Shown piece after piece: positions 57,890-59,700 of a DNA stretch of 64,000 bases. Made by a program: the position numbers and the translations under genes. The stretch comes from Escherichia phage vB_EcoM-VpaE1: sequence record KM657822. One strand, given 5' to 3'. Every line of letters starts with the position of its first letter. Position 1 is the first letter of the stretch. The notes beneath the pieces are model-generated. The model saw only the letters and a program-made list of their open reading frames with translations. It was not told the origin of the DNA and did not search any database.

Positions 57890-58150
57890 AAGGCTACTGC
57901 CATCCTTCCATACATTACCTTACCTTACCTCACCTGACCTGACCTGACCCTACCTAACATTACCGTGCCACACCTCACTTAAAAACCCTCTTAAAAGACT
58001 CTTAAGTGATGTAATCGAATTTTTATGTAGCTCCGATTAACTACCCATACCAAGCCTAACCTGACCGCACCAAACCTTACAACACCACACCATACCTGAC
58101 CATACCAAACCTCATTAAAAGACCCTCTTAAAGACCTTTTAAAAAGGAGC
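57890..58150. repeat. G-poor ACCTTACC-type tract plus conserved palindromic module (two units)
   Basis: taccttaccttacctcacctgacctgacc... tract followed by conserved about 75-nt module cacttaaaaaccctcttaaaagactcttaagtgatgtaatcgaattttt atgtagctccgattaactacccatacc. Confidence 0.8.
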
Positions 58151-58174
58151 CTCCGAAGAGGCTACCTAGTCAAC

Positions 58175-58615
58175 TTAGAAAGGTTTTCTACGTTGCTTGT
58201 TAATGTTAGCTTTCATAGCAGCTAAATGGTTTTGCTGTTCAATCAGTCGTGAGCGTTCTTGATGGCTAAGTGCCATAGTGTTCACATTCTCAATCGCTTG
58301 AGTGGCTTGCTTTAAAGCGCGACCAATCTTACCAGACATTTTACGTTTTGCAATAGTTGCTTGATGCTTAGGTTCAACCACACGATAACCAACACCCATT
58401 GAAGCAACCAGATAAATCTTCTCTTCTTTAAGAAGCTTCTCAATAAACTTCTCAAGTCGGTTTAGACGTGTAAGCGCATAAGCCTTCATTTCATCTTCGT
58501 ACTTAACAATGTCACCTTGATAAGTTGGCTTCACAATACCTAAGAAGGTGTCCATCTCAGAGTGTGATACAGTGTCACCGTAACTAAACTTTGCTGCTAA
58601 TGCTTTTGTATTCAT
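58175..58615 (-). CDS. hypothetical protein (cassette gene 2)
   Basis: ORF flanked by repeat blocks. Confidence 0.5.
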   Translation of the reverse strand: MNTKALAAKFSYGDTVSHSEMDTFLGIVKPTYQGDIVKYEDEMKAYALTRLNRLEKFIEKLLKEEKIYLVASMGVGYRVVEPKHQATIAKRKMSGKIGRALKQATQAIENVNTMALSHQERSRLIEQQNHLAAMKANINKQRRKPF

Positions 58616-58617
58616 AA

Positions 58618-59220
58618 TTAAACGTTACCTTCTGAAATAACTTCTACAGAAAAACGACCAAAGCGTGGACGCCAATCACCTACACCACAAAGGTTACCAG
58701 CATTTTCCAGAACCATCAGGAGTTCCTCTCGGGTAATTTGCTCTTCATCGAACATCAAACCAAACTCTACAGACCAATCACGGAAGATTGGACGGTAGCT
58801 CATAACTCGTGCTGTACCAATCTTAACAGATTTAGCATAGATAAAATCTGGATTCTTAGCAAGTTCTTGTGGGTTTGCTGGACAGTTCTTGATAGTCATT
58901 GGGAAGACTACATCTGTCAGCATAATGGCTCGGTCAATTACCTTACCAAGTTTGTTGAGCTTTGCACCAGACTTGATACAAGCCTCAATCATCTCACCGT
59001 TCATAACAAAACCAAGTTGCTCATCGTAGTAACAAGAAGTTACCAGTTGACTTTCTGCTAAGAGCGCATAGTCTTCGTCAGTCTTTTTACGTTTACTGGA
59101 CAGAGACTTGTGATATTTTGTCAGAGGGTTTAATGGGTCTGACAGCGTATCGTTATGGCTCAAGAAAGGACGAGTACCAGTGATTTTGACATTTAACAGT
59201 TTCATAGCATTTAGCTCCAC
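58618..59220 (-). CDS. hypothetical protein (cassette gene 1)
   Basis: ORF flanked by repeat blocks. Confidence 0.5.
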
Positions 59221-59289
59221 ACTTTAGTTGATTGTTAAGTTGTTTGTAAAGAACCCTCAACAGAAGACTCTTTAGAAACTTGGTAGATT

Positions 59290-59700
59290 TTTAACGTGGC
59301 TACTACCATCCACCCATACCATACCGAACCTTACCTTACCAAACCAGACCGCGCCTTACCAAACCAGACCAAACATTACTTTACCCTACCTCATTAAAAG
59401 ACCCTCTTAAAGACCTTTTAAAAAGGTAAGTCTCATTTTAATGTAGCTGAGACTAACTACCCATACCTCACCCTACCAGACCAGACCTTACCCTGCCAGA
59501 CCCTACCGAACATCACTTAAAAATCCTCTTAGAAGACTCTTAAGTGATGTAATCGAATTTTAATGTAGCTCCGATTAACTACCCATACCCTGCTTTACCT
59601 TACCGTACCGTACTTTACCCTACCGTACCGAACAATACTTAACCCGACCTTACCCTACCGGACATCACTTAAAAACCCTCTTAGAAGACTCTTAAGTGAT
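59290..59700. repeat. G-poor ACCTTACC-type tracts plus conserved palindromic modules (three units)
   Basis: Same unit architecture and orientation as 57890-58150; near-identical 75-nt module at 59512-59585. Confidence 0.8.

Follow-up and report, generated by a model that had tools for sequence, protein, structure and literature searches.

Two minus-strand genes of Escherichia phage vB_EcoM-VpaE1 (record KM657822) are flanked by five repeat units in direct orientation, which raises the question of what kind of element such an arrangement represents. An earlier note on the 64,000-nucleotide stretch that we analyzed (the window) had suggested an origin of replication, a boundary of a recombining or mobile cassette, or a regulatory array. 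We conclude that this Felix O1-like phage almost certainly carries a type II VIPR (Viral Interference Programmable Repeat) locus in the region. VIPR is an already known kind of system, a CRISPR-like, phage-encoded form of RNA-guided DNA silencing (bioRxiv 10.64898/2026.04.26.720920 and.720927, preprints). It was reported in April-June 2026 and was reached here from raw sequence.

Repeat code, RNA structure and proteins of the locus

Three of the units lie upstream of the genes on the gene strand (59282-59701) and two lie downstream (57876-58147), so that the coordinates confirm the earlier placement of two units to the left and three to the right (Table 1). The tracts within the units are 55-85 nt long. 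They had been described as almost devoid of G on the plus strand, and they are indeed G-poor, but G still makes up 6-9% of that strand, versus 20% in the whole window. Their repeat was thought to be a telomere-like unit of the 8-mer type; instead it has a strict 5-nt period, with the sequence NNGGY on the gene strand (ACCNN on the plus strand). No other such tracts occur in the rest of the 64-kb window or in the rest of the closest relative's 87-kb genome. The information per position of NNGGY is 0.10, 0.14, 0.99, 1.86 and 1.08 bits (in-phase tracts only, with the guides of the window set by hand). Across 50 unique tracts the fourth position is G in 98% of pentamers, the fifth is T or C in 93%, and the third is G, T or A and never C, with G in 76%, while the two N positions are nearly random at about 0.1 bit each. 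The NN bases are also hypervariable between related loci whose flanks are near-identical. Published vrRNAs consist of 9-16 tandem YNNGG repeats in which GGY is conserved and NN hypervariable (bioRxiv 10.64898/2026.04.26.720920), and the five vrRNAs of the window carry 10-16 NN each. The strand asymmetry of the tracts is fully explained by this code, because the guide RNAs use GGY.

Table 1. Positions of the features of the locus, listed in order along the gene strand
Feature	Position	Strand	Detail
Promoter, sigma-70-like, TTGACA-16-TATACT	59732..59759	-	11/12 in consensus scan
Hairpin GGTGAGTA...TACTCACC	59704..59743	-	overlaps -10 box and transcript start; read from sequence
A-module 1 (palindrome of the earlier note), 18-bp RNA hairpin 5' of vrRNA U1	59663..59701	-	fold prediction; -17.5 kcal/mol, z -6.3 on gene strand vs -8.6 kcal/mol on plus strand
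vrRNA U1	59550..59666	-	guide 59582-59666, 16 NN; 3' tail 59550-59584
A-module 2, 18-bp RNA hairpin	59511..59549	-	fold prediction; -21.1 kcal/mol, z -7.3 on gene strand vs -9.9 kcal/mol on plus strand
vrRNA U2	59427..59514	-	guide 59460-59514, 10 NN; tail 59427-59462
B-module, variant spacer without CACTTAA palindrome	59389..59426	-	predicted fold not significant, z -1.9
vrRNA U3	59282..59392	-	guide 59313-59392, 15 NN; tail 59282-59315
vipr, 195 aa	58618..59205	-	189/195 identity to PDB 36pp
Site inside vipr, codons 157-167, matched by Felix O1-type lone guide	58706..58737	-	
vap1, 146 aa	58175..58615	-	adjoins vipr
Intrinsic terminator after vap1	58141..58163	-	stem AGCCTC/GAGGCT, then T-run
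B-module preceding vrRNA D1	58110..58147	-	
vrRNA D1	58012..58113	-	guide 58044-58113, 13 NN; tail 58012-58046
A-module 3, RNA hairpin	57973..58011	-	-13.0 kcal/mol on gene strand vs -5.7 kcal/mol on plus strand
vrRNA D2	57876..57976	-	guide 57907-57976, 13 NN; tail 57876-57909
Promoter-like TTGACA-17-TATTTT inside 19-nt inverted repeat	57828..57875	-	kept in all loci; downstream locus boundary, upstream of next gene

A conserved palindromic module had been assigned to every unit. Three of the five units do contain the palindrome CACTTAA...TTAAGTG (A-modules 1 to 3), but the other two carry a related module without it (the B-modules). The gene strand is the RNA strand favoured both by the A-module hairpin and by G.U pairs in the tails, and we propose that the A-module hairpins may act as sites of vrRNA processing. 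Motifs resembling boxA, GGTCTTTAA, also occur within the modules. In a consensus scan no unit has an internal sigma-70 promoter of its own, the -10-like TTTAAT lacking the key A at position 2. The sigma-70-like promoter at the upstream end is kept in all related loci, Felix O1 included, and to judge from its sequence and position it would drive both the upstream vrRNA array and vipr-vap1. The vrRNAs D1 and D2 sit downstream of the vap1 terminator; in SUSP1, sRNA-seq detects the downstream vrRNAs (bioRxiv 10.64898/2026.04.26.720920 /.720927).

Each guide is followed by a constant 3' tail that consists of a hairpin and a pseudoknot. In an alignment of the tails 95.4% of cells are paired, versus 31-42% in slid controls, and in 9 of the 10 pairs both partners have changed, a count that comes from only four tail types and hence few independent events. 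The pseudoknot occurs in the variants GUAG/CUAC, GUGG/CCAC and AAGG/CCUU. An Rfam search of 57.0-60.5 kb returned nothing relevant, which places the tail outside the curated families.

The two genes of the proposed cassette (58175-59220) are real, but its right-hand end is not: the start codon of the upstream gene is ATG 59205, in agreement with the solved protein, rather than GTG 59220. Its product is 96.9% identical to the solved Vipr of SUSP1 (PDB 36pp). The AF2 model (pLDDT 94) has a Cas7/Csm3-like RAMP fold with a G-loop and a thumb, and the best Foldseek hits are Csm3/Cas7 RAMPs with a probability of 1.00; the Vipr of VIPR systems is a small (~20 kDa) single-RRM RAMP homolog (2026 preprints). 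Residues H17, K33, E71, M72, R138, C173, D177, W178 and R179 are all conserved in the pairwise alignment with 36pp, and cryo-EM has assigned the reading of GGY and of the skipped base to H17, D177, R138, W178, R179 and K33 (bioRxiv 10.64898/2026.04.26.720927). The window allele differs from SUSP1 Vipr at six residues and carries R159 (CGA). The adjacent gene is 99-100% identical to the vipr-adjacent gene of SUSP1 and SUSP2, and we use for it the preprint name vap1, VIPR accessory protein (bioRxiv 10.64898/2026.04.26.720920 /.720927). Neither gene has a match in Pfam, PADLOC or NCBIfam scans, and both reading frames are intact. The match of Vipr to 36pp and the adjacent vap1 therefore identify the region as a type II VIPR locus. 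It combines a Vipr that has the GGY- and skip-reading residues with YNNGG repeats, the tail and the two-gene layout, and four of its five guides have targets on a satellite, with none on the phage itself. For annotation, two "hypothetical" genes can be renamed vipr and vap1, and ~1 kb of "repeat region" can be assigned to five guide RNAs, four of which have named targets.

Work on SUSP1 has shown expressed vrRNAs that purify together with Vipr, in a complex able to bind DNA and repress transcription (2026 preprints). By analogy with that phage, we hypothesize the following sequence of events in VpaE1. Transcription from the minus-strand promoter at ~59.75 kb would proceed through three vrRNAs, vipr and vap1 to the terminator, with two further vrRNAs beyond it, each vrRNA comprising 10-16 GGY-NN pentamers and then the constant tail. 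As published for SUSP1, one Vipr protomer would bind each repeat and sequester GGY, leaving NN exposed to pair with double-stranded DNA in such a way that every third target base is skipped, and the bound filament would then block transcription.

Guide targets on a satellite

To locate targets we applied the published rule, by which NN pairs with the target and one target base is skipped per repeat, with shuffled guides (200 trials each) and skip rules of 0, 2 and 3 as controls. Under the 1-nt-skip rule four of the five guides have matches on the satellite that the preprint names, and under the other skip rules the guide matches are at background. The guide of U2 matches all 20 of 20 NN in the satellite tape-measure gene (L029:1859-1887), the skipped base falling on the codon wobble position. 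U1 matches at 30 of 32 NN (L024:9471-9517) and D1 at 24 of 26 (L027:6713-6750), the latter with its skip in wobble phase; the targets of these two guides belong to the same 184-aa gene family. For U1, U2 and D1 no shuffle was as good (0/200 each). The fourth match, that of D2 (L027:7977-8014), covers 21 of 26 NN (81%) with nine consecutive NN perfect; one of 200 shuffles was as good, and it is out of codon-wobble phase. The targeted genes are those for a 184-aa protein (two guides), the tape measure and a 109-aa protein.

The satellite is 11-12 kb long and is integrated in E. coli chromosomes, and one of its loci (L056) includes the two accessions that the preprint names, WP_096972664.1 and WP_096972663.1. 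Because a baseplate gene is common to the satellite and VpaE1, the family of VpaE1 is the likely helper of the satellite. This likely helper relationship and the four guides on satellite genes together suggest that the locus likely serves to silence this parasite during infection, and it is from this that we infer its biological benefit. The idea of a regulatory array holds only in a loose sense, as trans-acting guides that, as published for VIPR, would silence transcription of a competing element's DNA, but not as cis sites for the enclosed genes. Searching the window and the related loci for self-targets gave none with at least 80% of NN, the best reaching 75% and only for the 10-NN guide. 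In the opposite direction, the best match of the satellite's own vrRNA to VpaE1 is 75%, which is the chance level. The 184-aa protein targeted by U1 and D1 was considered as a Vipr homolog and rejected (BLASTP E 4.2, hhalign probability 0.6%), and Pfam found nothing in either satellite target protein.

U3 is the one guide with no target on the satellites, its best match of 21/30 being at chance level (83/200 shuffles). Its full pattern has no hit in IMG/VR, and partial patterns hit only non-enteric contigs of 26-27% GC with the 3' third of the guide lost, which we treat as chance. This orphan guide, the six differences from SUSP1 Vipr and the loss of the genes from many relatives would all fit an inactive remnant of VIPR in VpaE1. 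We regard such decay as very unlikely: the reading frames are intact and all needed residues are present, the target of one guide is perfect and those of two others are nearly so, and the promoter, terminator and tails are conserved.

The target matches also bear on the proposed origin of replication, which would operate either through a stable R-loop formed from the upstream promoter across the G-rich non-template tract or as an array of primase sites. There is a strong promoter directly upstream of the tracts, their strand asymmetry is strong, the locus lies among replication genes (ligase, polymerase), and the KGT of the repeat resembles the core of the T7 primase site. However, an origin leaves the strict pentamer phase, the hypervariable NN and the pseudoknot tail unexplained, all of which the VIPR code explains, as VIPR does the four significant target matches. 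There is no initiator gene beside the locus, and Felix O1-type phages with one unit replicate normally. The only turn in GC skew is at ~54 kb, where gene orientation flips, and none occurs at the locus, although phage skew follows transcription and this is weak evidence. The origin gained no support, the asymmetry being accounted for by GGY, and we consider it extremely improbable.

Gain and loss of the genes, and a guide that matches vipr

A survey of relatives, as had been recommended for these units, found the enclosed genes variably present: among the related phage records, which number 229, vipr-vap1 occurs in ~116, and in ~103 ligase and ORF87 adjoin with no interruption. Felix O1 is an example of the empty site, where one hybrid unit is left. 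The number of units across related loci varies from 1 to 3 upstream and from 1 to 4 downstream, and the products of vipr and vap1 are 97-100% identical across phages, SUSP1 and SUSP2 included. The variable presence of the genes and the one-unit empty site of Felix O1 indicate that the flanking repeats behave as deletion or insertion boundaries, and the absence of vipr-vap1 from about half of the related records looks like the result of recombination between guide units.

The same observations (presence and absence, the hybrid unit, the changing unit number and the near-identity of the cassette proteins) could be taken to mean that the units serve chiefly as boundaries at which a mobile cassette recombines, comparable to the PeSL promoter/stem-loop repeats of T4-type phages, and that any RNA is incidental. 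Recombination between direct repeats does explain gain and loss, but it explains neither a G in 98% of cases every 5 nt nor a covarying pseudoknot, and it leaves open why the NN codes fit satellite genes in phase with their codons; moreover, in the published system the units are expressed guides. We therefore find a purely recombinational role very improbable. The boundary behavior proposed in the earlier note is real, and the units are functional guide-RNA genes of a VIPR locus rather than mere boundaries.

Phages without vipr-vap1 keep one or two guides and have no Vipr protein. The lone guide of the Felix O1 type, which is widespread, reads vipr itself, at codons 157-167, with 20/22 NN on Lys159 alleles and 18/22 on the allele of the window. 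None of 300 shuffles reaches 20, and the skipped base is always the codon wobble position. In addition, a CT to TT variant of the lone guide follows the CTG/TTG polymorphism at Leu163 of vipr. Since the phages that carry it lack a Vipr of their own, this guide could act only via the Vipr of a co-infecting rival. We tentatively propose, as a possibility that falls a little short of probable, that it may be a "Trojan" anti-VIPR guide and that the vipr of the window may itself be a VIPR target. The guide would load onto the rival Vipr and the rival vipr-vap1 operon would be shut off; the change of codon 159 from AAA to CGA in the window would then be an escape mutation. If true, this would be a VIPR-against-VIPR conflict inside a single phage genus and a natural case of a guide that works only through a rival's protein. 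The two VIPR preprints make no mention of vipr-less guides or of Felix O1, and three points made here, namely the loss of vipr-vap1, the vipr-less guides and the lone guide that reads vipr, were not found in them.

Comparison with known systems

Several other kinds of repeat array were considered and rejected. Two-tetrad G-quadruplexes fail because they would leave the conserved T unexplained and just 76% of repeats have G at position 3, and a T7-type primase-site array fails because no more than 15% of repeats have C as the next base. T7-like arrays beside a terminal repeat do not apply, since the ends of the records fall elsewhere, nor does a linear-replicon telomere, since in Felix O1 the locus lies inside the genome, at 57.6-57.9 kb of 86 kb. 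The locus lies at varying record positions in relatives, and the gene list of the closest relative contains no protelomerase. A CRISPR array was rejected because the variable segments follow a pentamer code and fit their targets only with gaps, skip 0 being at background.

An array of TRAP-like binding sites ahead of vipr and vap1, in their leader, was also set aside. The TRAP site in the Bacillus trp leader consists of 11 (G/U)AG triplets with 2-nt spacers, and it shares with VIPR a conserved triplet, a 5-nt period and free spacers, a pattern that reveals one protein subunit per repeat and pointed here to a protein lattice. However, the TRAP ring acts in cis to regulate the leader RNA of its own operon and the spacers there hold no information, whereas the spacers of VIPR themselves carry it. 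The PeSL "mobile regulatory cassettes" of T4-type phages resemble the units in that their repeated promoter/stem-loop modules lie on either side of genes whose presence varies, and these modules can bring about the gain or loss of such genes. PeSL repeats differ in being short and regulatory, and they are not known to hold coded guides or to have an RNA-binding protein dedicated to them.

The closest counterpart is the type II VIPR of SUSP1, which has the same pentamer code, tail hairpin and pseudoknot, two-sided arrays, satellite target and 1-nt skip. The arrangement of vrRNAs differs, with three upstream and two downstream in VpaE1 and one and three in SUSP1, as do the NN codes; one related locus (L016) parses as one upstream and three downstream, which is the published SUSP1 arrangement. 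With the backbone of Class 1 CRISPR-Cas, in which Cas7/Csm3 lies on crRNA, VIPR shares the RAMP fold, one protomer per repeat, periodic base flipping and the alternation of conserved handles with variable guide segments. Unlike Class 1 systems it has no cas1 or cas2 and no contiguous spacers, the guide being spread over the NN with a period of 5 nt in the RNA and 3 nt in the target. Its target is double-stranded DNA, for which no PAM is needed and which is silenced, not cleaved (2026 preprints). VIPR stores its guide information in two variable bases per pentamer, and it has been proposed to be older than CRISPR (2026 preprints).

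A type II VIPR locus and its guide RNAs

The phage is a Felix O1-like myophage of the genus Felixounavirus; 229 phage records match the region, with Escherichia phage allfine at the top (91%), and the stretch from about 55.7 kb to 64 kb has its genes exclusively on the minus strand. The repeat units described in the earlier note are real and far beyond chance, and their number (five) and direct orientation were given correctly. On the gene strand, each tract consists of consecutive NNGGY pentamers, where NN is a variable dinucleotide and GGY a conserved triplet, and the five tracts contain 16, 10, 15, 13 and 13 NN dinucleotides. 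The strand asymmetry that had suggested a replication origin is accounted for by this GGY code, and we found no evidence of an origin: the sole skew turn lies at about 54 kb, where gene orientation flips.

The window and 17 related IMG/VR phage loci yielded 50 unique tracts, and position statistics come only from the 27 that the parser kept in phase. In these 27, 98% of the repeats have G at position 4; position 3 can be G, T or A, with C never seen there; at position 5, T accounts for 82% and C for 11%; and both N positions hold about 0.1 bit apiece. The lengths of these tracts are exact multiples of five, with the phase unbroken from the preceding module to the following one. NN content is wholly different between loci with near-identical flanks and genes, and the number of units per locus varies (1-3 upstream, 1-4 downstream). 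That a triplet is kept every 5 nt, between spacers that vary freely, suggested one protein subunit for each repeat. Such tracts are confined to this locus, in the window as well as across the full 87-kb genome of the closest relative. A gene-poor stretch of the window (13400-15200) holds dense short tandem and dispersed repeats of a different sequence type, recurring every 10-12 and 20-24 nt; these may correspond to repeat_regions annotated at 44.8-46.0 kb in the closest relative.

Features of the VIPR locus and its surroundings, in window coordinates
Feature	Position	Strand	Remark
DNA ligase		minus	first in minus-strand order of the locus
Sigma-70-like promoter	59759-59732	minus	TTGACA-16-TATACT
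Three upstream repeat units	59701-59282	minus	
195-aa gene (vipr)	59205-58618	minus	
146-aa gene (vap1)	58615-58175	minus	
Intrinsic terminator	58163-58141	minus	
Two downstream repeat units	58147-57876	minus	
Promoter-like site within inverted repeat	57875-57828	minus	TTGACA-17-TATTTT; 19-nt repeat, 89% complementary; upstream of 127-aa gene
A-module copies	59663-59701, 59511-59549, 57973-58011	minus	18-bp RNA hairpin
Felix O1 guide site in vipr	58706-58737	minus	NN match

The 195-aa protein has no match in Pfam, NCBIfam or PADLOC, and is identical at 189 of 195 positions to PDB 36pp, 'SUSP1 Vipr protein'. [quoted passage not shown] According to these preprints, a vrRNA has 9-16 GGY/NN repeats and ends in a pseudoknotted 3' tail; the protein encloses each GGY, and NN pairs with double-stranded DNA, every third target base being skipped; and the bound Vipr-vrRNA complex represses transcription. 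The SUSP1 locus described there comprises vipr, the accessory gene vap1 and vrRNAs flanking both sides. All nine residues assigned to GGY and skip-base recognition (H17, K33, E71, M72, R138, C173, D177, W178 and R179; 10.64898/2026.04.26.720927) are kept in the window Vipr when aligned to 36pp, and an AlphaFold model based on 40 homologs (pLDDT 94) has Csm3/Cas7 backbone subunits as its top structural matches. One related locus (L016) has one upstream and three downstream vrRNAs, agreeing with the published SUSP1 layout, and its upstream guide has 12 NN, the same as the cryo-EM sample. Judged by its sequence, the window locus is thus a type II VIPR locus, a kind known before from the sister phage SUSP1, and its mechanism would be the one reported for SUSP1, carried over by analogy.

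Two side observations concern the protein and its records. The cryo-EM preprint places T175 in the pyrimidine pocket; the deposited 36pp chain D reads V175, as does the window Vipr, within C173-G174-V175-G176-D177. GenBank GU169904.1, a 147-kb entry under the name Staphylococcus phage SA1, includes a vipr 98.5% identical to the window's together with other Felix O1-like sequence; the entry is probably a chimera or wrongly labelled.

An ungapped alignment of 24 distinct vrRNA tails, which fall into only four types and hence represent few independent events, supports a hairpin of 5-6 bp together with a pseudoknot of 4 bp: pairing holds in 95.4% of cells, against 31-42% in slid controls, and nine of ten pairs have changes on both sides. 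Compensatory changes give the pseudoknot three forms (GUAG/CUAC, GUGG/CCAC and AAGG/CCUU). The three A-modules, which contain the palindrome CACTTAA...TTAAGTG, form the 18-bp hairpin as minus-strand RNA only: they fold at -17.5, -21.1 and -13.0 kcal/mol on the gene strand and at only -8.6, -9.9 and -5.7 kcal/mol on the opposite strand, because several pairs are G.U. The tails hold G.U pairs too, and from this we take the minus-strand transcript to be the functional RNA. The two VIPR preprints give no account of how type II arrays are cut; we infer that the long A-module hairpins between vrRNAs are processing sites, candidates for a double-strand RNase.

Beyond the downstream units, the inverted repeat with its promoter-like site looks like an operator. 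Also in the neighbourhood are an HTH regulator gene (56894-57223), near this repeat, and a short hydrophobic ORF (48 aa; 59766-59912) between the ligase and the VIPR promoter. Two vipr-less relatives (L039, L053) have sequence akin to this ORF on the upstream side of the promoter; Felix O1 is without it, the ligase stop codon there abutting the promoter.

Satellite targets of the guides

For the target search, each guide was recast as NNxNNx.... No self-targets at or above 80% were found in the window or the related phage loci. The phage baseplate-hub gene (window 44249-45049) matches a 'phage baseplate protein' at up to about 92-94% DNA identity, and this matching gene, a satellite marker, is present in 474 of 5426 complete E. 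coli genomes. The nine copies fetched (L024-L029, L054-L056; for example L024:5600-17300) are islands of about 11-12 kb, at several chromosomal insertion sites, carrying a serine recombinase, a tape-measure gene, the baseplate gene, an HNH endonuclease and often a Dam methylase. One copy has the exact accessions given in the preprint for the SUSP1-targeted satellite, and a satellite in E. coli genomes is the target of most SUSP1-clade guides (VIPR preprints).

Numbering the guides U1-U3 upstream of vipr and D1-D2 downstream of vap1, U1 matches a satellite 184-aa gene at 30/32 NN, D1 the same gene family on the opposite strand at 24/26, and U2 the tape-measure gene at 20/20, a site recovered independently as the sole exact match in IMG/VR. 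D2 reaches 21/26 on a satellite 109-aa gene, nine consecutive NN being perfect. Shuffles of NN order equalled these scores in 0, 0, 0 and 1 of 200 trials each for U1, U2, D1 and D2, and skip lengths of 0, 2 and 3 gave background-level scores. The skipped base falls at the codon wobble position for U1, U2 and D1, in line with the preprint, and D2 is out of wobble phase. U3 stayed at chance level on the satellite copies, and pattern scans with it returned only AT-rich chance matches. Across all loci, about 45 of 75 parsed vrRNAs reach at least 80% when scored on the first six satellite copies and one phage genome, and their best sites are almost all in satellites. The satellites themselves carry vrRNAs (VIPR preprints); we confirmed ones with a phage-type tail at L024:6873-6922 (minus strand) and L029:8152-8201 (plus strand), and no vipr gene was present in the copies examined.

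Variable presence of vipr and a lone guide that matches it

The earlier note had also raised a cassette boundary. The enclosed genes are indeed variably present, both proteins occurring in about 116 phage records and the ligase-ORF87 junction being uninterrupted in about 103, but the units are working parts of the system and not mere boundaries. In Felix O1 (L023) the junction measures 282 bp and holds exactly one unit. The 5' half of this unit matches the one that comes first upstream in vipr-positive phages, and its tail matches the one that comes last downstream. Such a hybrid would be the expected remnant of recombination between flanking units, by deletion or the reverse. Other vipr-less relatives likewise retain one or two vrRNA units; the two-unit loci (L034, L039, L044, L045 and L051, all IMG/VR Felixounavirus) have them at about 3080-3500, between ligase and the next gene. 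Several guides of vipr-less phages match the satellite at 87-91% NN.

The lone Felix O1 guide (L023:3750-3830; also in L049, L052 and L053) matches best within vipr, over codons 157-167, with the skipped base at the wobble position. It scores 18/22 on the window allele and 20/22 on Lys159 alleles, a better score there having been predicted beforehand, and the sole miss on the latter is the near-constant terminal AT. These codons are its best site in 18 of 18 vipr-positive loci, and none of 300 shuffled guides reached 20. The guide of VpaE1_ev78 differs by one NN, CT to TT, and the vipr alleles on which this variant reaches 20/22 are precisely those, SUSP1 among them, with TTG and not CTG at Leu163. 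The lone guide is found in about 38 phage records, and vipr is absent in all four inspected. At codon positions 1 and 2, polymorphism is as dense in the target window as anywhere in vipr, a tie for the maximum (4/22 sites vs 18/390 gene-wide) that is suggestive only.

The two VIPR preprints mention neither guides without vipr nor Felix O1, and they report that some guides of another clade target other VIPR systems. A lone guide that matches vipr, in phages that themselves are without the gene, may be a new observation.
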